Positions 1,757 to 24,325 of a stretch of DNA of 53,849 nt are shown one piece after another. A program made the position numbers and the translations under genes. The stretch's first letter is position 1; every line of letters begins with the position of its first letter. The notes beneath the pieces were generated by a model that was not told the DNA's origin, searched no databases, and saw only the letters and a program-made list of their open reading frames with translations. This DNA comes from a bacterium (lineage in GTDB: Bacteria > UBP18 > UBA7526), in contig JAUWYL010000001.1 of NCBI GenBank assembly GCA_030615855.1, positions 1-53,849 of the forward strand, written 5' to 3'.

Positions 1757-2021
1757 AAACAAAATCCCCTCTAAATCTCCCCAGACCGCATCCCGCATAG
1801 TAGATGGCGAGGCGGTCATCGTCCTCTTAAAGAAGAGCCGGGTGCACGTCCTGAATGAAGTAGGAAGTCGCATCTGGGAACTCTCCAATGGAAAGAGAAG
1901 CATAAAAAAGATTGCAGACACCATCTTCAAGGAGTTCCAGGTCACCAAGAAAAAAGCCCTCAAAGACACCATAGAGTTTGTAAAAAGTTTAACCAAAAAA
2001 GAAATGATGGTCTTAAAATGA
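1746..2021 (+). CDS. PqqD family protein / RiPP recognition element (RRE)
   Basis: 91 aa; R.VDGEAVIV...LNEVGSRIWEL..G...I...I..EF.V......D...FV..L pattern. Confidence 0.85.
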   Translation: MSIENKIPSKSPQTASRIVDGEAVIVLLKKSRVHVLNEVGSRIWELSNGKRSIKKIADTIFKEFQVTKKKALKDTIEFVKSLTKKEMMVLK

Positions 2022-3049
2022 AGTTAGATTATTATCAAAAAATAGTCAAAAAAACAGTGGATGAGAACATCCCATTCACTGTCCACTTCGACCTCACCTA
2101 TAAATGCAATCTGAAATGTGTCCACTGTTATGTTACCGAAGAGAAAGGAGAGAAAGAACTTTCCACTGAAGAGATAAAATCTATTATTAACCAGCTGGCG
2201 GAAGCAAACACCCTCTATCTCACCTTTAGTGGAGGAGAGATTTTCACTCGTGAGGATTTCTTTGAGATTGCTTCTTATGCCCGAAAGAAGGGTTTTGCCC
2301 TACGTCTCCTCACCAATGGAACCCTGGTCACTCCTCAAATAGCAAATAAAATTAGAGACCTAAATCCTCTATCTGTCAGGATGAGTCTCTATGCTACTGA
2401 TCCTGATGTTCATGACGCCATTACCAGATCAAAAGGCTCTCAGCGAAAGACAGTCAAAGCCTTTTCGCTCCTCAAAGAGAGAGAAATAAAGGTTGCCATC
2501 AACTCTGTTTTAATGAAAGAGAATGTAGGGGAATTTAAGAGATTAAAGGCCTTCGCCCAGGAGATAGATTCTGGCTTTGTCTTTGACCTCGGTATTATAC
2601 CTTGTGATAATGGGTCTAAAAAGCCCCTTACCCATAGACTCACAGAGAATGACCTGATTGATTTTTTCTCTTCAAATAGTAGAACATCGGAGTGGGAACC
2701 AATAGAAATACCAGATGATAGCCCCCTATGTGGTGCCGGACTAAATACCATCTATATCTCCCCTTATGGTGAGGCCTATCCCTGTGTCAGTATACGAGAA
2801 AGCTGTGGTAACCTGACCAGACAGCCTTTAAGCGAAATATGGCAGGCACCCATCCTGAAGAGACTCAGGGCCACCAAATTCTCTGATCTAAAAGAGTGTT
2901 CTACCTGCCCCCTTAAGTCTTATTGCTTCCGCTGTCCCGGCCTCGCTTTATTAGAAGACGGCAACCTCTTCGGTCCTTCACAAGCCGCCTGCACTTTAGC
3001 CCGAGCCCGCAAAACCACCTACGAAAAACCACGAAAAGCCACGGATTAG
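2018..3049 (+). CDS. Radical SAM/SPASM domain maturase
   Basis: CNLKCVHC, SGGE, TNG; SPASM cysteines CGAG...GEAYPC...CSTC...C..C...C. Confidence 0.9.
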   Translation: MKLDYYQKIVKKTVDENIPFTVHFDLTYKCNLKCVHCYVTEEKGEKELSTEEIKSIINQLAEANTLYLTFSGGEIFTREDFFEIASYARKKGFALRLLTNGTLVTPQIANKIRDLNPLSVRMSLYATDPDVHDAITRSKGSQRKTVKAFSLLKEREIKVAINSVLMKENVGEFKRLKAFAQEIDSGFVFDLGIIPCDNGSKKPLTHRLTENDLIDFFSSNSRTSEWEPIEIPDDSPLCGAGLNTIYISPYGEAYPCVSIRESCGNLTRQPLSEIWQAPILKRLRATKFSDLKECSTCPLKSYCFRCPGLALLEDGNLFGPSQAACTLARARKTTYEKPRKATD

Positions 3050-3057
3050 CACGGATT
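3030..3057. repeat. Left repeat arm of GxxExxY cassette 1 (AGCACGGATT units)
   Basis: cacgaaaagc cacggattag cacggatt; reverse complement of the downstream AATCCGTGCT units. Confidence 0.7.
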
Positions 3058-3068
3058 GAAAAGAATAG

Positions 3069-3452
3069 ATGAGCACAGAAAAAAAGTTGTTATATGAGGA
3101 TTTGACATATAAAATAAGAGGGGCCTTGTATGAGATTCATAAAGCATTAGGTCCGGTGCATAAGGAAACAGTCTACCATAATGCTATAGCCATTGAACTT
3201 AAACATCTAAAAATACCATTTAAAACAGAAAAGGTGCTCAAAGTAACCTATCGTGGAGAAACAGTAGGTATTTATAAACCTGATTTCATCATAGATGATA
3301 AAGTAATCCTTGAGATAAAAGCGGTTCCTGCCATAGCAAAAACAATGCTAGATCAGATTTATTACTATGTTAGAGGCTCAAAGTATAGGCTGGTTCTATT
3401 AGCAAACTTTGGAGCCAGAAGACTGGAAATAAAACGAAAGATCTACGGCTAA
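3069..3452 (+). CDS. GxxExxY protein (PD-(D/E)XK-like fold)
   Basis: LGPVHKETVY, PDFIIDDKVILEIKA, LANFG. Confidence 0.9.
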   Translation: MSTEKKLLYEDLTYKIRGALYEIHKALGPVHKETVYHNAIAIELKHLKIPFKTEKVLKVTYRGETVGIYKPDFIIDDKVILEIKAVPAIAKTMLDQIYYYVRGSKYRLVLLANFGARRLEIKRKIYG

Positions 3453-3454
3453 AT

Positions 3455-3608
3455 ATCCGTGCTAATCAGCCATAATCCGTGCTAATCCGTTTTTAATCAG
3501 TGCTAATCCGCGTATAAAGAAGTTTAACAAAGCATTACAATTAATCATCCGTGCTAATCAGTTATAATCTGTGCTAATCAGTGCGACTAAATCAGTGCTA
3601 ATCCGTGT
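3455..3608. repeat. Right repeat arm of GxxExxY cassette 1 (degenerate AATCCGTGCT 10-mers in two blocks)
   Basis: atccgtgcta atcagccata atccgtgcta atccgttttt aatcagtgct aatccgcgt ... atccgtgcta atcagttata atctgtgcta atcagtgc ... atcagtgcta atccgtgt. Confidence 0.85.
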
Positions 3609-3626
3609 ATAGAGGAGGTGAAAAAA

Positions 3627-3776
3627 ATGCCCAAGAAAAAAACCTATCGCAAACCAAAAATCATCTATCAGAAAGAGATAGAGACCTTAGCTGTGGTCTG
3701 CAGTTCTGCCAAGGAACCACCCGATGGGCCTTGTCGTACTTCAGTGCCGGAAGGCTGCACCAACCTGTATAGCTAA
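3627..3776 (+). CDS. Putative RiPP precursor peptide, 49 aa (MPKKKTYRKPKIIYQKEIETLAVVCSSAKEPPDGPCRTSVPEGCTNLYS)
   Basis: Strong RBS GAGGAGGTG 6 nt upstream; YxxPxI RRE-binding leader motif; three Cys in the C-terminal half; lies downstream of PqqD and rSAM-SPASM; below the ORF-track size cutoff. Confidence 0.8.
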   Translation: MPKKKTYRKPKIIYQKEIETLAVVCSSAKEPPDGPCRTSVPEGCTNLYS

Positions 3777-3880
3777 TTTATACCCTACCCAGGGTCCGGC
3801 TTCAAAAGTAACAAGGCCCTGAACTTTAGCAAAAAACTCCCTCAAATCCTTCAACTAATTCTGTTTGTTTATCTCCTTTG

Positions 3881-4155
3881 CACACTTTCATCGACGATCG
3901 TCCCTCATTTTGTGTTATTGACTTAATTTAGCGATTGTACACATTCTTATCGACGATCGTCTCCCAATTTGTGTCATCGATTTAATTGTTTAGTTTACTT
4001 CCTACACACTTCGATCGACGATCGTTCATCAATTTGTGCTTTCGGTTTAACTTGATAGTCTGCACATTTTCATCGACGATCGTCTCTCATTTTGTGTTAT
4101 TGACTTAATTTAGCGATTGTACACATTCTTATCGACGATCGTCCATCAGTTTGTG
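3881..4155. repeat. Array of five 34-bp imperfect palindromes (CACA-N5-ATCGACGATCGT-N8-TTGTG) with 24-31 bp linkers
   Basis: Copies at 3881-3914, 3940-3973, 4005-4038, 4063-4096, 4122-4155; linkers 1 and 4 are identical (ttattgacttaatttagcgattgta). Confidence 0.9.
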
Positions 4156-4251
4156 TCAATGCAATATTTCTAATTATTTTGAGGTATCGGAACTTCAATA
4201 AGCAAAACAAGGTTCTGACGAAGTCAGGTTCTTATATTGGAGGATATAAGG

Positions 4252-5898
4252 ATGTTAAATTCCACGACTAAGGAAGCGGTTGCTCATCTCTTGAGGGAAG
4301 AGATTACATCCGGGAAAGAAGTCTCTTTAAAAGTTGCCCAGGAGAGTATGCGACCTTTGATCAACCCCGGGGATAGGGTAGTGGTCGAAGGCTGCCGAGC
4401 AGAAAACCTTATTCCTGGAGATATCATCCTCTACGAAAAGGAAGGAACTCTTTACACCCATAGGTTCTTGTATCGGAGGGAATTGTTTCTTCTCACCAAA
4501 GGCGACAATGCTCTCTTCCTCGATACCCCCTTTCCTAAAGAGCAACTATTAGGAAAGATAATCACTATTAAGAAGAAATCCAGAACCATTAATCTGAGAA
4601 AGAGATCCTGGAGAATTATCAATTCGGTCTTGGCTATTCTTTTCCTGACCGAAGGTTTGATGTTTGGCATTGCTCGTCGACTAAAGCGAGGTCTTTTTGG
4701 CCACAAAAAGATTCGGAATGATCTTGAAGATAGACTAATCCTTCTCTGTGCCCGAACAAGGATAGATAGCGAAACCAAGGACGAAATCAAGAAGTTACTT
4801 GGGAAAAAATTAAACTGGGATTACTTACTAAAAAGGGCCGAGAGAGAAGGGCTCTCCGGCCTTTTATATTATAATCTAAAGAGATTTAATGAAAGAATTG
4901 TTCCTCCAAGTGTCATGGAGACTTTAGAGGAAAGATATTTCAATATCACTTCTCGCAACCTATTCTTCTTGAAAGAAGTGGGTAGGGTTTTGAAGGCTTT
5001 TAAAGAAGCAGGGATCCCAGCTATGGTCTTAAAGGGCACTTTTCTCATAGAAGAAATCTATAAGAATCCGGGCCTGAGGTCTATGTCCGACATCGATCTC
5101 CTTGTAAAAAGAAAAAACCTTCTCCAGGTCCATGAAGGATTAAAGGGATTGGGCTATACTACCACAGATAACTACTTGGATTATATAGAAAAGCCAATTT
5201 CGGGATATCTCAACAGTCTCTTCTACTACAGAAAAGAAAATGAGGCCTCAATTCCTCTCCACATCCATTGGCATCTGGTAAATTCCAGTGTCCCTAATTA
5301 TATGTTCTCTTCCCGAATCGATATGGGGGGCATCTGGCAAGAGACAGAGAAGATAAAGATAGCGGATGGAGAGGCCTTGAGCTTGGCACCCCATCATCTA
5401 GTTATCTATCTCTCTGAGCATGCCCTGAGGATGAAGCACTCCTTGGATAGGCTCATTCTTCTGTGTGATATCTCTGAGGTGATTGAAGAATATCGTAATG
5501 GGTTGAATTGGGAAAGAGTTATTGAAGATAGTTTCAGGTTCAATCTAGATCGTATGGTCTACTATAACCTATATCTTGTAAGGAAATTTTTAGGGAGGGA
5601 AATCCCTTCTTATGTTTTGAAGAGGCTCAGGCCAGAGAGGCCTGGTTATTTCGAAAGAAAATTCGTATCCTTCATTTCGAAGAACAGGCGCTTTCCAGGC
5701 TTAAGTTATTTACTGTACCTTTCCTTGAATAGGGGACTGTTTGCCAAGGGGAGGTTCGTCTTTAGAACATTCTTCCCTCCCCGCCAGGTAATGGCCCAGA
5801 GGAATAACATCTCCCGAAAAAATTTGACCCCTCTTCCTTACCTACGCCATTTAAGAGAAGTATTAGGCCCTCTTCCCAAATTGATACGCTATCTTTAA
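4252..5898 (+). CDS. S24/S26 peptidase-like domain fused to a nucleotidyltransferase family (NTP_transf_5-like) domain
   Basis: N-terminal ESMRP...GD...THR...TKGDN; C-terminal LKG...R.MSDIDLLV...HWHL...H; GGAGG RBS favours ATG 4252. Confidence 0.85.
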   Translation: MLNSTTKEAVAHLLREEITSGKEVSLKVAQESMRPLINPGDRVVVEGCRAENLIPGDIILYEKEGTLYTHRFLYRRELFLLTKGDNALFLDTPFPKEQLLGKIITIKKKSRTINLRKRSWRIINSVLAILFLTEGLMFGIARRLKRGLFGHKKIRNDLEDRLILLCARTRIDSETKDEIKKLLGKKLNWDYLLKRAEREGLSGLLYYNLKRFNERIVPPSVMETLEERYFNITSRNLFFLKEVGRVLKAFKEAGIPAMVLKGTFLIEEIYKNPGLRSMSDIDLLVKRKNLLQVHEGLKGLGYTTTDNYLDYIEKPISGYLNSLFYYRKENEASIPLHIHWHLVNSSVPNYMFSSRIDMGGIWQETEKIKIADGEALSLAPHHLVIYLSEHALRMKHSLDRLILLCDISEVIEEYRNGLNWERVIEDSFRFNLDRMVYYNLYLVRKFLGREIPSYVLKRLRPERPGYFERKFVSFISKNRRFPGLSYLLYLSLNRGLFAKGRFVFRTFFPPRQVMAQRNNISRKNLTPLPYLRHLREVLGPLPKLIRYL

Positions 5899-5927
5899 AA
5901 ATGATAATTATCCAATACTCCCTTTGA

Positions 5928-6017
5928 CACAGATCAATCAACGATCGTCCTCTGAAATGTGCACATGTTAAATTGAGCCAATACACAAATCAATCGACGA
6001 TCGTCTCTAAAATTGTG
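5928..6017. promoter_or_regulatory. Two further copies of the 34-bp palindrome upstream of the PaaX-like gene (candidate operators)
   Basis: cacagatcaatcaacgatcgtcctctgaaatgtg 5928-5961; cacaaatcaatcgacgatcgtctctaaaattgtg 5984-6017. Confidence 0.75.
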
Positions 6018-6055
6018 CAAAGGGATAGAAAAAACTCTTCTACAGGAAGTGAGGA

Positions 6056-6847
6056 ATGAAAGGACGAGTCTCTACCACAAAGATTATCCTTTCTCTTTTG
6101 GACGATGCCCTCAGGCTTCATAGAGATCCCATGACTTCTCTTTTGGAAGAGATGGGGAAAACGGCGCGTGCTGCCCAGGTAGCACTCACCAGACTTGAGA
6201 AAAAGGGCCAGATCAAGAAGGTGAATCAGAAGGAAGGAGTCTTCTTCTCTCTGACAGATGAGGGGAGGGCCCAGATTCCGGACAATCCCCATAGGCTGAA
6301 AAGAAAAGAGCGGAGATGGGATGGGAGATGGTATCTAGTGAGCTTCGATATCCCGGAGAAGAATAGAAGGATGAGGAACCTCTTCAGGCGATATCTGGTC
6401 AGCCTGGGATGTGGAAGGATGCAGAAGAGCCTTTGGATATCGCCTTACAATCGTTCTCGAAGAATACAATCCATGATTAACGAAATGGGCCTGGAAAAGT
6501 ATGTGGAGACCTTCTCTGCTCAACATCTGGGAAGAAGTGATAGCAAAACCTTAGCCTCTTGGATCTGGAAACTCGAGGAATTGAATGAACGCTACTCCGA
6601 ATTTATAGACCATTATAATCCTCTACTTTCCAGATTGAAGAGGGAGGCAAGCACTAAAGGCCAAGAGATAGGACTTCTGCATCTCAAGAGAAGAATAGAG
6701 AAAGATCTGGCCCAAATCTTGAGGAACGATCCTCAGCTCCCCAATAATCTCTTGCCTTCCGATTGGAGGGGAGAGAAGGCCTATCAACTCTTTGAAGAAT
6801 ATTATAGCTTAATCCTTAAAAGAATTGAGCCGAGGAGAAAGAAGTAG
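6056..6847 (+). CDS. PaaX-like transcriptional regulator (wHTH, Cas2-like central domain, PaaX C-terminal domain)
   Basis: ALTRLEKKG...FSLTDEG wHTH; WDGRWYLVSFDIPE..R..R...R..L..LG.G..Q.SLWISP; W.LEELN..Y..F; DPQLP..LLP.DW.G. Confidence 0.85.
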   Translation: MKGRVSTTKIILSLLDDALRLHRDPMTSLLEEMGKTARAAQVALTRLEKKGQIKKVNQKEGVFFSLTDEGRAQIPDNPHRLKRKERRWDGRWYLVSFDIPEKNRRMRNLFRRYLVSLGCGRMQKSLWISPYNRSRRIQSMINEMGLEKYVETFSAQHLGRSDSKTLASWIWKLEELNERYSEFIDHYNPLLSRLKREASTKGQEIGLLHLKRRIEKDLAQILRNDPQLPNNLLPSDWRGEKAYQLFEEYYSLILKRIEPRRKK

Positions 6848-6851
6848 ATTG

Positions 6852-6885
6852 CACAAATCAATCGACGATCGTCGATTGATTTGTG
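6852..6885. repeat. Perfect 34-bp palindrome just after the PaaX-like stop codon
   Basis: cacaaatcaatcgacga|tcgtcgattgatttgtg; lies between convergent genes and may also act as a terminator hairpin. Confidence 0.9.
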
Positions 6886-6908
6886 TGAGAAGGGAAATAA
6901 AAGGGGGA

Positions 6909-7718
6909 TCAGTATTGGATGAGACTTCCGTCCCTCTTTGCTTTCTTGATGGCGTAGTTAAAGACCAGGATGCCTAAGGGAAGCAGGATAATGGAGAAGA
7001 TGGCCAGGGCCATTATGTTGGGTAATAAAGTTCCCCAACTGGGGTCTCCTAATAGGGAGTTTCTTATACCCCTTAAGGAGTAGGTGATGGGCAGAAGATG
7101 GGAGAGCCTCTGAAGGGGTTGGGGAAGGATAGTGATGGGGTAGTAGACCCCACCCAAGAGGATGGAGAGGGTGGTGAAGAGCCAGGTTATGGGATTCCCC
7201 CTCTTGAAGACGATGATGAAACCCGCAGCGATGATTCCCAGACTGCTAAAAGAGATAATGGTTAGAATAAGAATAATAAAGGCGGGCAGAAGGTGAGTAA
7301 GGTTTAGACTCACCTTGAATAGGAAGACGCCGAGCAGAAGGTAGATCAAGACATTTAGAGAGGTTCGGATGAAGCTCCAGAGGGAGAGGGAGACGACTAA
7401 TACGCTTATTTTGGTAGGGGTGAGGAGCATGGCCTCTAAGGTGCCCATCATCTGTTCCCTTCTTATGCTACCTGAGAAGCTCTGTAGTCCCACTCCCAGA
7501 TAGGTGGAGAAGGCCAATCCGATTAGAACGAAGGGGAAGTATTCCCCTCCGTAATCCTTGAGATAGGGGGCAGCGCTCTCCCCAAATAGCTTAGAGATGA
7601 AGAAGAAGGTGACCACCCAGAAGAGGATGCTGAAGAGGTTGAGCAGGAAGGAGAAGCGATAACTTATCTCAACAAGAAAATCCCTCTTGATGAAGGCCAA
7701 AGGCTTCCTTAGGAACAA
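6909..7718 (-). CDS. ABC-2 type transporter permease
   Basis: Multiple TM helices, EQMMGTLEAMLLTP, GVYYPITILP. Confidence 0.9.
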   Translation of the reverse strand: MFLRKPLAFIKRDFLVEISYRFSFLLNLFSILFWVVTFFFISKLFGESAAPYLKDYGGEYFPFVLIGLAFSTYLGVGLQSFSGSIRREQMMGTLEAMLLTPTKISVLVVSLSLWSFIRTSLNVLIYLLLGVFLFKVSLNLTHLLPAFIILILTIISFSSLGIIAAGFIIVFKRGNPITWLFTTLSILLGGVYYPITILPQPLQRLSHLLPITYSLRGIRNSLLGDPSWGTLLPNIMALAIFSIILLPLGILVFNYAIKKAKRDGSLIQY

Positions 7719-7738
7719 TTTATTTCTCCTTTAAAAAT

Positions 7739-7786
7739 GTTAGCCAGTTAACCGGTTAGCCTGTTAGCCAGTTAAAACTGGTAAAC
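7739..7786. repeat. Orphan 8-mer tract (GTTAGCCA-like)
   Basis: gttagcca gttaaccg gttagcct gttagcca gttaaaac tggtaaac between the ABC genes. Confidence 0.7.
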
Positions 7787-8577
7787 TATTTGCTGGTGAA
7801 GTAAGAAAAGATTTCTTCCATAGTAGCCTTGGGGGTCTTCGCCTTTCTTCGTAATTCTGTTAGTGTCCCGCAGGCCTTTATCCTGCCTTGGTCTATGATG
7901 GCGATACGGTCGCAGATTTCCTGGGCCTCGTTCATCTGATGGGTAGTCAAGAAGACGGTCTTCTTCTGTTGAGAGACGAGTTTCTCTCTAATAAAAGTCC
8001 TCAAATTCTTGGCAGCGGTAGGATCCAGACTCTTGGTGGGCTCATCCATAAATAGAATCTGGGGATTGGGCAATAGGCTCCTTGCTAAGGAGAGCCTCTG
8101 CTTCATGCCAGTAGAATATTCCTTAAAGGAGATATTTAGCATCCCTTCTATCTCCAAGAGTCCAGCCACCTCTCCCATTCTCTTCTTTATTTGGGTCGAA
8201 GAGAGATTATAAAGAATAGCAAAGAATTCCAGATTCTGTCTACCAGTCAGTCGCCAGTAGAAGCAGCGCTCCTCACCAGTCACCAGTCCAATGGACTCCT
8301 TAACCCCGGCTTCATCCTTCAGGATGTTATATCCATTGACATAGGCCTCTCCCCTGGTGGGCAATATGAGAGTAGAGAGTAACTTTAAGAGGGTGGTTTT
8401 ACCCGCTCCATTGGGACCCAGAAGTCCAAATATCTCTCCCCTTTTTACCTGGATATTCACCTCTTCTACTGCCTTGACCACTCCCTTTGTCCCGAAGGGA
8501 TGGGCGAGCAATCTCCCCAGGCCAGGGGTAGGAGTGAAGTATTTTGTGAGATTTATGGTTTCTATGGCATAGGGCAT
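7786..8577 (-). CDS. ABC transporter ATP-binding protein
   Basis: GPNGAGKTT, YSTGMKQR, MDEPT; GGAGG RBS favours ATG at 8577 (MPYAIET). Confidence 0.92.
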   Translation of the reverse strand: MPYAIETINLTKYFTPTPGLGRLLAHPFGTKGVVKAVEEVNIQVKRGEIFGLLGPNGAGKTTLLKLLSTLILPTRGEAYVNGYNILKDEAGVKESIGLVTGEERCFYWRLTGRQNLEFFAILYNLSSTQIKKRMGEVAGLLEIEGMLNISFKEYSTGMKQRLSLARSLLPNPQILFMDEPTKSLDPTAAKNLRTFIREKLVSQQKKTVFLTTHQMNEAQEICDRIAIIDQGRIKACGTLTELRRKAKTPKATMEEIFSYFTSK

Positions 8578-8599
8578 GACAGCCTCCGATACAATAGGT

Positions 8600-8628
8600 A
8601 GTTTAACAGATAAGAAATAGGATGTCAA
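8600..8628 (-). promoter_or_regulatory. Sigma70-type promoter for the ABC operon
   Basis: Minus strand TTGACA (8628-8623), 17 nt, TAAACT (8605-8600). Confidence 0.6.
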
Positions 8629-8636
8629 ACTCAGAT

Positions 8637-8665
8637 TTGACAATCCATGCAATATAAGATATAAT
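8637..8665 (+). promoter_or_regulatory. Consensus sigma70 promoter for the PAS/sensor operon
   Basis: TTGACA 8637-8642, 17 nt, TATAAT 8660-8665. Confidence 0.8.
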
Positions 8666-8702
8666 ATCAAACAAATTACATAGGGCGTAAAGAGAGGCCA
8701 AA

Positions 8703-10109
8703 ATGGTTAAGGAAAAGAAAGAAAGAGAAGAGATGGGGATGGAAGAAGAGTTAAGAAAGTATCGATTGATAGTGGAGTCTGCTCAGGATGCTATATTCGT
8801 AAAGGATTTGGATGGTCACTATCTCTTGGTCAATCAAAAGTGCTTAGAAGCATTTGGCAAGTCAAAGCAAGAGGAGGTCCTGGGCAAGAGGGATGATGAA
8901 CTCCTGCCCCCAGAACAGGCCAAAATAAATATTGAGGATGACCAGAAGGTTTTTAAAACTGGCAAACTTAAAGAGGTAACTAAGAAGATGACTGTTGGAG
9001 GAAAAGATCGTTGGTTTCAAGCAAAAAAGGTTCCTCTGAGAAATGCCCAAGGGAAGATTATTGGTCTCATTGGCATTGCCCGGGATATCACCGAGCAGAA
9101 GAAGGCGGAGGAGGAGATTAGAAATTCTCAGGGAAAGATTGAAATCCTCATCAATTCCTCAAGCGACCTCATCTTTCTTAAGGATAAGAATTTTAGATAT
9201 TTAATAGCCAATGAATCAATCGGAAAGTTCTATAATAGAAAGATAAAAGACATTATTGGTAAGACAAACTTCGATTTTATGCCAAAAGAAGTTGCTGAAG
9301 AATGTAGGAAAAGTGATGAGGAAGCCTTACAATCCGGGGGTCCTATTAGAAGAGAAGAATATATTGGGGACAGATGCTTCCATGTTATTAAACAGAAAGT
9401 TGTGGACACAAAGGGGAATGTTATTGGTATAGCAGCTGTGATTCGTGACATCACCGAACGCAAGAAAGCGGAGGAAAGGATAAGGGAGTCAGAGAAGAAA
9501 TATAGGGACATGGTAGAGATTACCACCGATTGGGTATGGGAAGTCGATAGGGATGGGGTATATATTTATGTTAGCCCTAAGGTCAAGGATATTTTGGGTT
9601 ACGAAGTCGATGAAGTAATTGGTAAGACTCCCTTTGATTTGATGTCAGAGGATGAGGCAAAAAAGATATCAAAATTCTTCAGAGAGAAGGTAATTAAAAA
9701 AGAACCCTTCTTCGGTTTGGAGAATATAAATAGACATAAGGACGGACATTTGATAGTACTGGAGACAAGTGGCATACCAATAATGGATGAAAGAGGAGAA
9801 CTGGTTGGCTATCGAGGTATTGATAGAGACATCACCGAGCGCAAGAAGATGGAGAAGATGTTGTGGAAAACCGAAGAACAACATAAGAAAGTTATTGAAA
9901 ATATTTTCAAATTTGTCCCAGAAGGTCTGTTAGTTTTTACAGATAAATTAGACTTATATAAAAAAAATAAAGCTTTTCGAGACATCGTTCAAAAATATTC
10001 TGCTAAGCTAAATTATACAGAACAAGAACTGGCAGAAATAATTATTGAAAAGGTAAAAAATAGAATAATCACCGGGAATAATACGGCAATCAGGGTTTCT
10101 AAAAAATAG
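8703..10109 (+). CDS. Multi-PAS sensor protein (three complete PAS/PAC plus the first half of a fourth, divergent PAS)
   Basis: Three RDITE[QR]KK PAC ends; final IFKFVPEGLLVF...NKAF segment lacks a PAC. Confidence 0.85.
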   Translation: MVKEKKEREEMGMEEELRKYRLIVESAQDAIFVKDLDGHYLLVNQKCLEAFGKSKQEEVLGKRDDELLPPEQAKINIEDDQKVFKTGKLKEVTKKMTVGGKDRWFQAKKVPLRNAQGKIIGLIGIARDITEQKKAEEEIRNSQGKIEILINSSSDLIFLKDKNFRYLIANESIGKFYNRKIKDIIGKTNFDFMPKEVAEECRKSDEEALQSGGPIRREEYIGDRCFHVIKQKVVDTKGNVIGIAAVIRDITERKKAEERIRESEKKYRDMVEITTDWVWEVDRDGVYIYVSPKVKDILGYEVDEVIGKTPFDLMSEDEAKKISKFFREKVIKKEPFFGLENINRHKDGHLIVLETSGIPIMDERGELVGYRGIDRDITERKKMEKMLWKTEEQHKKVIENIFKFVPEGLLVFTDKLDLYKKNKAFRDIVQKYSAKLNYTEQELAEIIIEKVKNRIITGNNTAIRVSKK

Positions 10110-11278
10110 GCGTGAGGAAGGAGCAAATAGGCAAAATAATTTTTAGTAAAGTATTGGAGATACCCTTAGCAAAGTATCTCACCTATATTGAGAAAATAAC
10201 AAAGGGATCAATAAAGCCTTTTTCAACCCACAAGTCTGTAAAAAAAAATTATTTTATGCTAAAACAATGATTAAAGATGGAACTCTATGTTTTAAGGTTT
10301 CAGATAAACGTTTAGAAAATATCTATTCGACTCAAAATTGTACTGAGAATAAAATAATATGTTCATTGAAATGGATTAACACCAGAAATAAATTTTCTTT
10401 ACATATTTTAAAAAGCCTCTTCCGTTATCAAAGTAAATATTGGTTTTCTGGCAAAGAGACAGATCTAAAACCTTTGACCTTAAAACAATTCTTATCCTTA
10501 TACCCACTAAAATATCTTGATCAAACTCGACTTTCAAGGTTAATTTCAAATTTATTGGTTATGAATCCTCAAAATCGGGTTATTAATCTTAAAAGTTTAT
10601 TTATATCAAAGAAAAAATATTACTCATACCTTGTTAAAGAATTAGTTAGGGGTAACGAAGATGCCTTGAAAGATAAGGAGATTCAACGCCTATTAGTTCA
10701 AAAAGGAGTACATTTACCCCTTAGAACGATATGTAATTGCAGAAAATTACTTAATATCCCTAACTATAAAGAAAGAACCACTTATTGTTATGAAAAGGAT
10801 ATAACTTTTAGTAATTACATAATGTTATTAAAAAGATATTTAAATAAAATTCCAACTGAAACTGGAACTTATGAATTAAGCATTTCATCAAAAATTAATT
10901 ACCTGAACTACAAAAGTAATGTTATATATATAGGTTCTTCCAAAAATCTGCGAAAGCGGATAACAAACTATTTTGGTAATAAACTAAAAAATAATCGTTT
11001 GAGTAAATTTATCAATAATTACGATGTATTCTTGCGTTTTTGTCTAAACCAAAATTACATCTTAGTAGAAAAAAAGCTCCTTAAGAATTTTAAGAACATT
11101 TATGGAGAGTTACCAAAGGCTAACAGTTTAGGAGGATAATTATGGAAAAGAATCCAGAAAAAACAGGAGAACTTATTTTGCAATTTGATTCAGCAAGAAT
11201 ATTTTTTGCAGAAGAAGAAGAAGAAGAAGAAGCCAGGATTGTTGTATCACTTAAAGACATCACCGAGCGCAAGAAGAT
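9827..11278. mobile_element. AT-rich cassette bounded by an identical 24-bp direct repeat (AGACATCACCGAGCGCAAGAAGAT)
   Basis: Repeat at 9827-9850 and 11255-11278; interior visibly more AT-rich than the flanks; carries a GIY-YIG gene. Confidence 0.5.
10112..11139 (+). CDS. Sigma54 (RpoN) DNA-binding-like domain fused to a GIY-YIG nuclease; main ORF 10267-11139, probable N-terminal extension across an A9 frameshift
   Basis: LKPLTLKQ...RLSRLI...L..D.EI...L..KG..L..RT....R..LNIP...ER (degenerate RpoN box); IP..TGTYEL...VIYIGSSKNLRKRI (GIY-YIG). Confidence 0.7.
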
Positions 11279-11453
11279 AATCAGTGATTTGGAGAAGACA
11301 AAGGCGGAACTAACTGCAAAGATTGAAGACCTAAAAAAGTTTGAAAAAGTAACTGTGAACCGGGAATTGAAAATGACGGAATTGAAGAAAAAGATAAAGG
11401 GGTTAGAGAAGCAACTAAAGATGAGTGGAGAAAAATCGGTGGATGAGAGATGA
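11142..11453 (+). CDS. PAC half-domain with poly-Glu linker and C-terminal RELKMxELK coiled coil
   Basis: (GAA)7 encodes EEEEEEE; IVVSLKDITERKK; KVTVNRELKMTELKKKI. Confidence 0.65.
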   Translation: MEKNPEKTGELILQFDSARIFFAEEEEEEEARIVVSLKDITERKKIISDLEKTKAELTAKIEDLKKFEKVTVNRELKMTELKKKIKGLEKQLKMSGEKSVDER

Positions 11454-12133
11454 GAAGGATAAAATGGTTAGTTATCGGGGGCATCTGGTTTCTCTACTGG
11501 ACCTGGGAAATAGTTGAAGTCCGTCTGGGATTTAAGACCTTTGATCCGGAACACATAATGGAAGGGGTAGTCAAACTATTTCTATGCTCTGGAATAATCT
11601 ACTTCGCCTTCAGGCTGATAGAACGATATCATCAAAAAATAGTTAGTATGAAGAGCTATTATGAGAATATCGTTGAGAATGCGGCCACCGGTATTATTGC
11701 CGTTGACCGAGAAGGAAGAATTACTACCTGGAATAGGTATATGGAGGAAAAGTATAAGATTAAACGCAGAGAAGTAATGGGAAAGAATATCTTTGAATTC
11801 TTCCCCCTTATTCAGACTAATGACATTGGTCAGGGAATAAAGACTGTTTTAAATAGCGATAAACCGCTTATTATAGATAGGGTGAGACATAAGACTAAGC
11901 GGGTAGGAGAGAGAATAATTGATTTCAAAATCTATCCTTTGAAGAATAGCCTGGGAAAGGTTACGGGAATAGTGTTGTTGAACGATGATGTTACTGAGAG
12001 AATAAAGATAGAAGAAGAACTGAAGACAAAGTATGAGGAGTTAGAGAAGTTCAGCAAGGTAACGGTCGGTCGGGAATTGAAGATGATGGAATTGAAGAAG
12101 AGGATAAAAAAGTTAGAAGAGAAATTAAGATGA
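11450..12133 (+). CDS. Membrane-anchored PAS protein with C-terminal GRELKMxELK coiled coil
   Basis: Two TM segments, IVENAATGIIAVD..G.I..WN, DVTER, KVTVGRELKMMELKKRI. Confidence 0.8.
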   Translation: MRRIKWLVIGGIWFLYWTWEIVEVRLGFKTFDPEHIMEGVVKLFLCSGIIYFAFRLIERYHQKIVSMKSYYENIVENAATGIIAVDREGRITTWNRYMEEKYKIKRREVMGKNIFEFFPLIQTNDIGQGIKTVLNSDKPLIIDRVRHKTKRVGERIIDFKIYPLKNSLGKVTGIVLLNDDVTERIKIEEELKTKYEELEKFSKVTVGRELKMMELKKRIKKLEEKLR

Positions 12134-13710: not shown

Positions 13711-14136
13711 ATGGAAGGAAAAAAGAGAATCACGAGCTTTAGAAATTTAGAGGTATACCAGAATACTTATAATGCTATGCTAATTGTGATGAAAGAAATT
13801 GTGCCTAAATTACCTGATAACGAAAAATACGATTTAAAGGACCAATCGAGTCGTGCATGTAAAACAATACCAAGATTAATAGCAGAAGGCTATGCTAAAC
13901 GTCATCAAAAAGCAGGCTTTCAAAAATATATCGATGACGCTATGGGTGAATGTAACGAGATGGTTGTTAGTTTAAGTCAGTGTAGAGATATTTATCCTAC
14001 ATATGTAAATGTAAAACGTTGCGATGAGTTAATTGATGTATATGATAAATCAGGAAGACAGCTTTATAAATTAGGTAACGCTTGGACAAATTTTAAAGAC
14101 GATAGACGTAACCGTAAGACGAAACGGGCATCGTAA
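13711..14136 (+). CDS. Four helix bundle protein (23S rRNA IVP-like family)
   Basis: SFRNLEVYQ...LP..EKYDLKDQ..RA...IP..IAEG. Confidence 0.9.
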   Translation: MEGKKRITSFRNLEVYQNTYNAMLIVMKEIVPKLPDNEKYDLKDQSSRACKTIPRLIAEGYAKRHQKAGFQKYIDDAMGECNEMVVSLSQCRDIYPTYVNVKRCDELIDVYDKSGRQLYKLGNAWTNFKDDRRNRKTKRAS

Positions 14137-14196: not shown

Positions 14197-14712
14197 ATGG
14201 CTAAGGCGAAGATATTAGTGGTAGATGACGAGGCCTATACCAGGGTCTTTTTTTATGAGTTATTAAAAGAAAAGGGATATAGGATTAGCATTGTAGAGGA
14301 TGGGAGAAGAGCAATTGAGACTGCGAAAAAAGGATCCTTTGATCTCGTTTTTTTGGATGTAAGAATGCCGGACATTGATGGGGTAGAGACCTGCAAAGCA
14401 ATTAAGAAGACCAGCCCTAAGACGATCGTCATTATGATGAGCGGCTACCCGGTTGAAGATGAGGTGAGAGAGGCACTCAAATTAGGTGCCTCTGATTATG
14501 TTGCTAAGCCATTTAATCCAGATGAGATAATGGGTATTACCCAGGTGGCGGAATATCTCAATATCCATAGGATGACCCTTTATGACTTGGTCCGAACGAG
14601 AAAAATTCCGGCCTTCAAGGTGGGCGGTCAGTGGCGCTTCAGAAAGGAGTTACTGGAGAAGTGGATTACTACTGAGACTAAGAGGCGGGAAAAGCGTTCT
14701 AAGAAGAAATAA
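14197..14712 (+). CDS. Response regulator: REC plus excisionase-like HTH_17 domain
   Basis: ILVVDDE, FLDVRMP, KPF; VAEYLNIH..TLY......IPAFKVGGQWRF. Confidence 0.9.
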   Translation: MAKAKILVVDDEAYTRVFFYELLKEKGYRISIVEDGRRAIETAKKGSFDLVFLDVRMPDIDGVETCKAIKKTSPKTIVIMMSGYPVEDEVREALKLGASDYVAKPFNPDEIMGITQVAEYLNIHRMTLYDLVRTRKIPAFKVGGQWRFRKELLEKWITTETKRREKRSKKK

Positions 14713-23923: not shown

Positions 23924-24325
23924 ATGAAAACCACTGAAGACACAGAATACACTGAAGATAAATACCCACATTCTGAACTGACCGATAAGATAATTAAATG
24001 TGCTATTGATGTGCATAAAACTTTGGGTCCCGGCTTTTTAGAAAGCATCTATGAGAATGCCTTAATTTACGAACTCAGGCAACAGGGATTGAAAGTTGAA
24101 GAACAGAAGTTAGTATCCATACCTTACAAAGAAGTTATCGTGGGTGAACATCGCCTGAATTTACTCGTTGAGGACTCAGTAATAGTTGAAAACAAAACCG
24201 TCAAACAATTCGATGAAATCCATCAGGCGCAAATTTTATCTTACCTAAAGGCAACGGACAAAAGGATCGGTCTTTTGATAAACTTTGCCAAAACTAAGAT
24301 AGAGATAAAAAGAATGATTTTATAA
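23924..24325 (+). CDS. GxxExxY protein (cassette 2)
   Basis: LGPGFLESIYE, LLVE..VIVENK, Q..SYLK....GLLINF; N-terminus TTEDTEYTED is encoded by the left repeat arm. Confidence 0.92.
   Translation: MKTTEDTEYTEDKYPHSELTDKIIKCAIDVHKTLGPGFLESIYENALIYELRQQGLKVEEQKLVSIPYKEVIVGEHRLNLLVEDSVIVENKTVKQFDEIHQAQILSYLKATDKRIGLLINFAKTKIEIKRMIL

Follow-up and report, generated by a model that had tools for sequence, protein, structure and literature searches.

The DNA analyzed here comprises positions 1 to 53,849 of contig JAUWYL010000001.1 (assembly GCA_030615855.1), from a bacterium of the lineage UBP18, and will henceforth be referred to as the window (53.8 kb of a 252-kb contig). At 6056–6847, on the plus strand, it carries a gene for a PaaX-like regulator composed of a winged helix, a Cas2-like ferredoxin domain with Asp98 and a PaaX_C domain. 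The window also holds eight copies of a 34-bp element: five form a tandem array in front of a gene encoding an S24/signal-peptidase-like and NTP_transf_5 fusion protein (4252–5898, plus strand), two lie immediately upstream of the regulator gene and one lies immediately past its stop codon. These elements are putative operators of the PaaX-like protein.

Eight 34-bp sites and a tandem array

Motif scans covered the window in full. The pattern CACA-N26-TGTG is matched nine times, with 0.16 matches expected, and none of 100 shuffled sequences reaches this count. Eight of the nine matches share the core ACGATCGT; all of these lie within 3881–6885, are exactly 34 bp long and start at 3881, 3940, 4005, 4063, 4122, 5928, 5984 and 6852 (sites 1 to 8). 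The ninth match, at 9407, is without this core and is ascribed to chance. When the 13-nt central sequence ATCGACGATCGTC was searched with up to two mismatches, only the eight sites and one unrelated match in coding sequence, at 14421, were recovered, and an nhmmer profile built from the eight sites detected no further or weaker copy elsewhere in the window. Pattern counts and shuffling thus bear out the eight copies with fixed ends and a common core that had been described in a first-pass annotation of this DNA.

All copies had been called palindromes, which holds for one of them. In site 8 (6852–6885) 17 of 17 pairs are mirrored, which makes it a perfect 34-bp palindrome; it begins, as had been noted, 4 nt past the TAG stop codon (6845–6847) of the PaaX-like gene and occupies the gap between this gene and a convergent ABC-2 permease gene. 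Sites 1 to 7 are mirrored at only 10 to 13 of the 17 pairs, with 11 in site 1 (3881–3914), 10 in site 2 (3940–3973), 12 in site 3 (4005–4038) and 13 in site 5 (4122–4155). All seven have the same orientation: the left half, where ATCG precedes the core, is well preserved, the right half is degenerate, and the best-conserved columns of the sites are the left ATCG, the core and the ends. The two copies said to lie just upstream of the PaaX-like gene are found there, site 6 at 5928–5961 (−128 to −95 relative to the start codon, ATG at 6056) and site 7 at 5984–6017 (−72 to −39). Over 38 nt, site 7 is 87% complementary to site 8.

Sites 1 to 5 belong to a five-unit tandem repeat on the plus strand (3879–4180; Tandem Repeats Finder, period 59, 4.4 copies, 71% matches), the last of them 97 nt upstream of the ATG at 4252. 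The successive periods are 59, 65, 58 and 59 bp, in agreement with the 58–65 bp initially reported. The layout of the units is A-B-C-A′-B′, i.e. that of a diverged tandem duplication: units 1 and 2 (A and B, with sites 1 and 2) recur as units 4 and 5 (A′ and B′, with site 4 at 4063–4096 and site 5), with 94% identity over 98 nt (3879–3976 and 4061–4158); unit C holds site 3. The spacers, 24–31 nt long, are homologous to each other, two being identical through the 98-nt duplication, and only 19 columns are invariant in a 65-column alignment of the units. The array probably arose by duplication of site-plus-spacer units. A like process is seen in a related locus (L002, described below), in the form of a 65-nt duplication.

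The array had been labeled CRISPR-like (short palindromic repeats that are clustered and regularly interspaced), and 34-bp repeats at 58–65 bp spacing near a protein with a Cas2-like domain would suit a degenerate or novel array of this kind serviced by that protein. CRISPR arrays, however, consist of near-identical direct repeats separated by mutually unrelated spacers, whereas the repeats here are 62–78% identical to the reference copies of their repeat families and the spacers are homologous. Moreover, there is no cas1 or other cas gene in the 54-kb window, a comparison with defence-system models yields hits to Cas2 models only, single copies of the motif are found at either end of the regulator gene as well, and the homologous loci described below have two to five sites and no array-like spacer diversity. 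Because its spacers are homologous, its repeats degenerate and cas genes absent, the array is not CRISPR-like; the label was dropped, and we give a CRISPR origin next to no chance of being correct.

Between the array and the ribosome-binding site (RBS) of the S24/NTP_transf_5 gene there is a small terminator-like hairpin (4214–4228; TCTGAC-GAA-GTCAGG, followed by a T-rich tail), which could be an attenuator or a structure of the 5′ untranslated region (UTR).

The PaaX-like protein and the flanks of its relatives

The 6056–6847 protein has the three-domain architecture of the PaaX family, with matches above cutoff to the PaaX winged helix (PF07848, 27.0 bits, cutoff 24.8), PaaX_M (PF20803, 90.3 bits, cutoff 24) and PaaX_C (PF08223, 55.7 bits, cutoff 22), and it is homologous to the protein in the E. 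coli PaaX structure (PDB 8A39, E = 7.9e-27). PaaX is a phenylacetyl-CoA-responsive repressor of aromatic catabolism. On the PaaX equivalog model TIGR02277 the protein scores 132 bits, below the cutoff of 264.55, and no paa or aryl-CoA genes are found among the 46 open reading frames (ORFs) of the window or near six homologs. These results sustain the view, taken at the outset, that a classical PaaX role is unlikely; by its equivalog score, its gene context and the Cas2 β1 Asp that it keeps, the protein is a non-canonical PaaX relative, and its PaaX_C domain probably senses a ligand other than phenylacetyl-CoA. The family it belongs to is large: a threshold of E ≤ 1e-3 gives 8,105 representative clusters, and one of E ≤ 1e-30 gives 335.

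The resemblance of the PaaX central domain to Cas2, likewise put forward earlier, was recovered in several ways. Alongside the three PaaX domains the protein matches PF09827 (CRISPR_Cas2) and several PADLOC Cas2 models, and it scores 31.6 bits on the cas2 model TIGR01573, above the cutoff of 24.5, with profile positions 2–55 of 96 matched only. Foldseek searches with a low-confidence AlphaFold model returned first the PaaX-family structures 8A39, 3KFW and 3L09, then Cas2 structures (8IA4, 6JHZ, 5ZYF, 3EXC and 2IVY; root-mean-square deviation 2.4–3.7 Å over 63–78 columns) and MarR/PadR winged helices; the secondary structure of model residues 92–155, in a model of low overall confidence, agrees with Foldseek on a Cas2-like fold of the central domain. 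D98 aligns with the β1 Asp of SSO1404 (2IVY) and of the 6JHZ Cas2, in single-sequence matches that are weak (E = 0.25–0.33), and the motif WYLVSFDIPE, which includes D98, is invariant in the close-subfamily alignment. In Cas2 the β1 Asp is a catalytic residue; we know of no nuclease activity for any PaaX-family protein. E. coli PaaX has LSEG where D98 stands. Among 163 family proteins, 100 contain the W.G.W anchor, and 76 of these 100 keep the Cas2-type Asp; the cas2 model is matched at E ≤ 1e-3 by 98 of 145 aligned family members. The likeness to the Cas2/VapD family thus lies in the central domain (cas2 cutoff, PADLOC models, superposition, D98 at the β1 Asp position), but this domain is fused here between a winged helix and PaaX_C, with neither cas1 nor a CRISPR array.

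A single search of the GTDB species genomes, made with the alignment of the subfamily, yielded six loci (L001–L006), for each of which 5.7–20.7 kb was compared; with the window, about 137 kb was scanned in all. The flanks of these homologs carry their own lineage-specific elements, in keeping with the tie between the motif and the PaaX-like gene that the first-pass annotation had drawn: long palindromic or quasi-palindromic elements lie beside the PaaX-like gene in all six loci, upstream in each, and five of the six have a further element at or just past the 3′ end of the gene. L001 holds a 90% identical ortholog on a contig that starts at the equivalent of window position 5968, with sites 7 and 8 preserved base for base. 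L002 (43% identity) has four 36-nt upstream elements with the core AACGATCG, the nearest at −58 to −23, and a fifth that falls within the ORF, at its 3′ end; L003 (41% identity, also UBP18) has three elements upstream. In the saccharibacterial L004 there is one element upstream (about −105 to −67) and one 5–6 nt past the stop codon, both with the core AACGGTCGTT. The patescibacterial L005, a short form of the gene that lacks PaaX_C, has one upstream and one 2–6 nt past the stop, depending on the end taken (core CGCGATCGTG); its two flanking copies form a 54-nt inverted duplication with 83% complementarity. L006, from a member of the Opitutaceae, combines a 40-nt upstream element (17 of 20 pairs mirrored) with a perfect 48-bp palindrome 103 nt past the stop (core GATCACGTGATC).

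The cores vary with lineage (CGATCG, CGGTCG, CACGTG) and are confined, within the sequence compared for each locus, to the flanks of the PaaX-like gene. A profile made from the window sites only finds the upstream sites of L002 and L003 (E = 0.008–0.012), and outside PaaX-linked sites no profile match better than E = 0.9 occurs in the 137 kb. Proximal upstream sites end 6–67 nt before the start codons, and 610–910 bp separate them from the site past the 3′ end. Relative to each other, the copies on the two sides of the gene are inverted in L005 and direct in L002 and L004. Neighbor genes, which encode among others FAD-oxidase/radical SAM proteins, pilins, RecG together with tRNAs, an H+-PPase with YchF, and RraA/enolase-like proteins, differ in every lineage and include no paa genes, so that the PaaX-like gene is the only factor common to the loci. 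As far as these comparisons go, two-sided bracketing of the PaaX-like gene is conserved across phyla; this is the most distinctive feature of the system, and the first-pass annotation had not noted it.

The same observations bear on the explanation that the sites are genuine binding sites of another factor, or a genome-wide repeat of the repetitive extragenic palindromic (REP) type that adjoins the PaaX-like gene by chance. The stretch of source genome covered is 54 kb, and the window contains other repeat-bracketed genes, at 3069–3452 and 13711–14136, both of which leave room for such a view. On the other hand, the PaaX-like gene is the sole gene shared by the seven loci with elements, the core changes with the lineage of that gene, and copies away from it are absent from the roughly 137 kb scanned; this explanation therefore appears very unlikely.

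Several details of individual loci were recorded in passing. The L002 element inside the ORF (10757–10795) encodes the protein tail ...KWSKRSHTKNG, and a [KE]RSH tail is kept in seven of eight proteins of the L002 clade (P0003, P0004 and P0006–P0009 have it, P0010 reads KQSS and P0005 ends earlier), which suggests a constraint at the DNA level. Directly upstream of the operator-like array of L002, at 9520–9720, there are four tandem copies of a unit of about 42 nt. In L006 (9756–10492) the gene falls into two ORFs with a 4-nt overlap, one of 80 aa for the winged helix and one of 165 aa for the Cas2-like/C-terminal part, and the palindromes are intact; this could represent a frameshift, a pseudogene or a natural two-gene form.

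As a control for bracketing, all ORFs of at least 80 aa in the window and the six loci were scored by the best ungapped match, direct or inverted, between the upstream 250 nt and the 3′ end plus downstream 200 nt (or 120 nt). With the 200-nt flank, the PaaX-like genes rank 3, 5, 6, 7, 8, 9 and 80 of 119 (Mann-Whitney P = 9e-5); ranks 1 and 2 are taken by a long unrelated repeat in L003 and rank 4 by a PAS gene in the window. With the 120-nt flank, from which L001 was left out for want of upstream DNA and which the downstream element of L006 falls beyond, they rank 1, 3, 4, 5, 26 and 59 of 118 (P = 2.7e-4). The two other repeats that score highly, the long one in L003 (4354–5650, scores 78–93) and a direct repeat around the PAS-domain gene of the window (11450–12133, score 30.5), are unrelated to the PaaX-like sites.

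Bracketing was not found for E. coli paaX and paaXY (flank scores 10 and 9) or for six actinobacterial plasmid genes of the PaaX family located in aryl-CoA clusters (L008–L013, scores 8–12). The latter are the six examined among homologs in 28 plasmid-collection and two phage records, all less than 32% identical, and are aryl-CoA-cluster regulators. The Cas2-type Asp is present in seven of seven genes of the bracketed branch and absent from seven of seven unbracketed ones (E. coli paaX and the six aryl-CoA-type genes), a correlation that may reflect mere shared descent of one subfamily.

These data bring up another explanation, a self-contained module of gene and palindromes that may be mobile or may process DNA and in which the Cas2-like domain would be an active nuclease or nickase on the palindrome core and the array an expansion of target sites. 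The gene-plus-palindromes unit recurs in unrelated neighborhoods of at least four phylum-level groups; in L004 (4348–5609) the module with its two palindromes sits between a tRNA-Arg gene (minus strand) and a tRNA-Ser gene (plus strand); the copies in L005 are an inverted duplication; and the central core is conserved here, with no shared center in three E. coli PaaX sites. Retention of D98 together with a score above the cas2 cutoff, the loss of this Asp in E. coli PaaX and the six unbracketed genes, and the frequency of both Asp and cas2 match in the family at large fit the same picture. Against it, no transposase, recombinase or cas1 gene is nearby, no dispersed copies exist in the sequence scanned, the flanks of L002 and L004 are direct repeats, unlike terminal inverted repeats, and no target-site duplications were seen, though these were not searched for systematically; the link between Asp and bracketing is explicable by shared ancestry, and the GC content around the PaaX-like module is unremarkable. 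We consider a module of this type unlikely. Its boldest form, in which a widespread, unstudied PaaX branch with a Cas2-type Asp would spread through uncultivated phyla, including Patescibacteria and Saccharibacteria, as a self-contained, palindrome-bracketed cassette, with a Cas2-like dimer on the dyad that reads or even nicks a CGATCG-type core, is similarly improbable; if true, the module would be more than a repressor, namely a site-specific DNA-processing or selfish element, and the array an expanded target field.

Candidate operators and their possible mode of action

Whether the sites act as DNA or as RNA can be judged from their folding. Copies 1 to 7 have folding energies between −5.3 and −9.5 kcal/mol (z between −0.14 and −2.35), no better than shuffled sequences, and per-unit RNA hairpins are ruled out for these seven of the eight copies; site 8 forms a strong hairpin (−24.1 kcal/mol, z = −7.6). 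Taken as a whole, the 460 nt of the array region are more stable than shuffled sequences (z = −4.99), which is uninformative, since any set of repeated quasi-palindromes is expected to behave in this way. The conserved columns differ from the pairing columns and keep no stem. Since folding exceeds the shuffled level in only one copy of eight, what is conserved is the sequence itself, position by position, as in a binding site on duplex DNA. The sole Rfam match at E ≤ 1 in 3000–7500 is a chance microRNA match inside a coding sequence, and a terminator scan found no T-run or terminator-like score for site 8 or for the downstream palindromes of L004–L006, so that site 8, strong as its hairpin is, does not resemble an intrinsic terminator. 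Likewise, the suggestion that the array transcript is cut into units of about 60 nt found no backing, in that there is no stable per-unit structure and no Rfam match.

Action at the RNA level, through terminating or stabilizing hairpins, pairing of the 5′ and 3′ UTRs for RNase processing, or substrates of a Cas2-like RNase, would be in line with the position of the site 8 hairpin between convergent genes, where a bidirectional terminator is expected, with the perfect palindrome of L006, with the complementarity of sites 7 and 8 and with the z-score of the array region. It is contradicted by the folding of the other seven copies, by the lack of a conserved stem, a T-run, a terminator score at the downstream palindromes or an Rfam family, and by L002, whose downstream copy is asymmetric, lies within the ORF and is a direct repeat, and so offers neither a hairpin nor pairing with the upstream copies. 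More generally, the varied orientation of the copies argues against 5′–3′ RNA pairing as well as against terminal inverted repeats, and is irrelevant for a symmetric dimer on double-stranded DNA. An RNA-level role is, in our judgment, decidedly improbable.

The E. coli PaaX operator provides a closer comparison. According to a review, the E. coli site is TGATTC(N27)GAATCA, the promoter Px is autorepressed by steric hindrance, and the PaaX homolog of PDB 3L09 is dimeric. In the K-12 sequence, TGATTC/GAATCA-type sites with N26–28 are found at Pz, Pa and Px, and the one at Px stops 2 nt short of paaX. The geometry is similar here: all eight sites are long dyads with short inverted outer half-sites, CACA-N26-TGTG, at a distance close to that of the E. 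coli half-sites (about 26–28 bp), a match of geometry only. The proteins share their three-domain architecture, and E. coli paaX likewise has one site just upstream of its own gene, which fits autorepression. Since the sites are palindromic and the homolog 3L09 is described as dimeric, the PaaX-like protein would be expected to dimerize. The two systems differ in that every bracketed lineage has a core of 6–8 bp at the dyad whereas the three E. coli sites have no shared center on inspection, in that tandem arrays of two to five sites and a further, usually more perfect, site past the stop occur here whereas E. coli paaX is not bracketed, and in the β1 Asp of Cas2, which the present protein retains but E. 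coli PaaX and the six aryl-CoA-type genes have lost. A restriction-modification or Dam-type cause of the CGATCG/GATC core was set aside, the core becoming CGGTCG and CACGTG in other lineages.

The first-pass annotation had offered, among other options, that the sites are operators bound by a dimer of the PaaX-like winged helix-turn-helix protein. Elements in six of six loci, the E. coli-like geometry and the absence of RNA hairpins favor this part of its proposal. We put the probability at roughly 0.7 that the eight sites are double-stranded DNA operators of the adjacent PaaX-like protein, which is best read as an autoregulated repressor that would also control the S24-peptidase/nucleotidyltransferase gene. 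A PaaX-like dimer would bind each quasi-palindrome, its two winged helices reading the outer CACA and TGTG arms about three helical turns apart and something at the dyad reading the ACGATCGT core. Sites 6 and 7, 39–128 nt upstream of the start codon, would give autorepression. The perfect site 8 past the stop codon may serve as an auxiliary operator of high affinity; it could take part in a loop with the sites upstream, hinder transcription or shield the gene from the convergent one next to it. The five-site array, derived by tandem duplication of a site-plus-spacer unit, would let the same repressor act cooperatively on the S24-peptidase/nucleotidyltransferase gene and, through it, on a step late in the peptide pathway.

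Several points weigh against this operator model. The half-site sequences are unlike those of E. coli PaaX, so that it is geometry alone that resembles. Site 8 lies past the stop codon between convergent genes, where no promoter offers itself as an obvious target. With a period of 59 bp (about 5.6 helical turns), neighboring sites come to lie on different faces of the helix, which is unlike the prediction of simple face-to-face cooperativity. Promoter-like hexamers overlap a palindrome in L004 only and adjoin one in L005; none is present on the gene strand in L002, which has one minus-strand match (9912–9885) within its upstream site array, L006 has none on either strand, and the best promoter match of the window (TTGATA-16-GATAAT, 5881–5908, plus strand, a 10/12 consensus match only) lies upstream of sites 6 and 7 and does not overlap them. 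The AlphaFold model, built from a 15-sequence alignment, is of low confidence (predicted local distance difference test score 61, predicted template modeling score 0.38). The six loci and the window amount to a small sample of about five independent lineages, because L001 holds the ortholog of the window gene and L002 is closely related to L003; a downstream copy is missing from L003, whose gene appears truncated at both ends. Finally, the footprint of the sites is identical between the window and L001 (68 of 68 positions), with coding DNA at 90–93%, but this is uninformative because other intergenic DNA is also 97–100% identical.

Repressors with auxiliary operators and looping are known from lac (O1, O2, O3), gal (OE, OI) and deo. 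The arrangement described here resembles these in having multiple unequal cognate operators across several hundred base pairs around one transcription unit, and differs in that the most symmetric site lies beyond the 3′ end of the regulator gene, the whole gene being enclosed; looping would be by analogy. A gene flanked by its own cognate palindromes is also reminiscent of REP-associated tyrosine transposases (RAYTs), which are flanked by their own REP hairpins, but neither an HUH/Y1 transposase domain nor dispersed copies are found in the 54 kb and the loci.

Within the library covered, literature searches retrieved nothing linking PaaX with Cas2 and nothing relevant linking PaaX with clusters for peptides that are made on the ribosome and modified post-translationally (RiPPs); among the titles listed on Cas2-like proteins none concerned PaaX, and PMC10333696 does not mention it. 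According to a 2026 survey of complete genomes, paaX seldom occurs outside a phenylacetate setting. Operators served by a repressor of the PaaX family are a known arrangement; new, as judged from sequence comparison, are a non-canonical branch that retains the Cas2 motif, the conserved bracketing and the tandem operator-like arrays. The results point to a large non-canonical PaaX branch with surroundings of other kinds, among them a radical-SAM peptide cluster and, in Patescibacteria, reduced genomes. They supply testable operator predictions for an uncharacterized regulator family, a way into the control of the peptidase/nucleotidyltransferase step in a RiPP-type cluster, and a natural case for studying the role of the Cas2-like domain of PaaX when the conserved Asp is retained.

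Neighboring genes and further repeats

The genes upstream of the array, all on the plus strand, comprise an ORF with a weak match to HprK-related kinases (920–1756), a PqqD gene (1746–2021), the gene for a radical SAM/SPASM maturation enzyme (2018–3049), a GxxExxY/PD-(D/E)XK gene identified by domain match (3069–3452) and a 49-aa Cys-containing ORF (3627–3776) that is preceded by the RBS GAGGAGG and has no family match; it is a putative RiPP precursor, judged from its context. The product of the 4252–5898 gene matches PF14907 (E = 2.4e-51) and PF00717 (E = 6.4e-05), scores 49.7 bits on TIGR02228, just under the cutoff of 51.85, and has counterparts of the same S24/NTP_transf_5 fusion in other candidate phyla. 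Downstream of site 8 follows a minus-strand exporter operon encoding an ABC-2 permease and an ATPase (6909–8670), and the remainder of the window holds PAS/kinase signaling genes and a large polysaccharide locus.

The sites had been proposed to gate the RiPP operon. They do precede the S24-peptidase/NTP_transf_5 gene and the regulator gene, but in the profile scan of the window none was found upstream of the kinase-like, PqqD and radical-SAM genes, the precursor ORF or the promoter of the ABC exporter. The S24/NTP_transf_5 gene, located directly 3′ of the array, is the likely regulated target, and the reach of the regulator appears limited to this gene and its own.

A second repeat family, GTGCTAATC, is present in six exact plus-strand copies, arranged as two triplets with a spacing of about 20 bp (3459–3603) between the GxxExxY gene and the small Cys-rich ORF, and in one exact inverted copy at 3044–3052, immediately ahead of the GxxExxY gene. 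With copies on both sides, in inverted orientation, the GxxExxY gene is flanked by inverted repeats; the GTGCTAATC copies could equally be operator sites for the precursor promoter.

Further along the window, a sharp low-GC island at 9900–11400 (26–29%, versus about 41% overall), conserved in L001, covers a fusion gene for a Sigma-54 DNA-binding and GIY-YIG nuclease protein (10267–11139) and a 103-aa ORF. This stretch has the look of an insertion, either acquired or selfish. A gene of the 23S_rRNA_IVP family (13711–14136; 6181–6606 in L001) lies between inverted repeats, with flank-matching scores of 14.5 and 18, and a second PDDEXK_3/GxxExxY gene is located at 23924–24325. Small repeat-bracketed genes seem to be common in the source genome.

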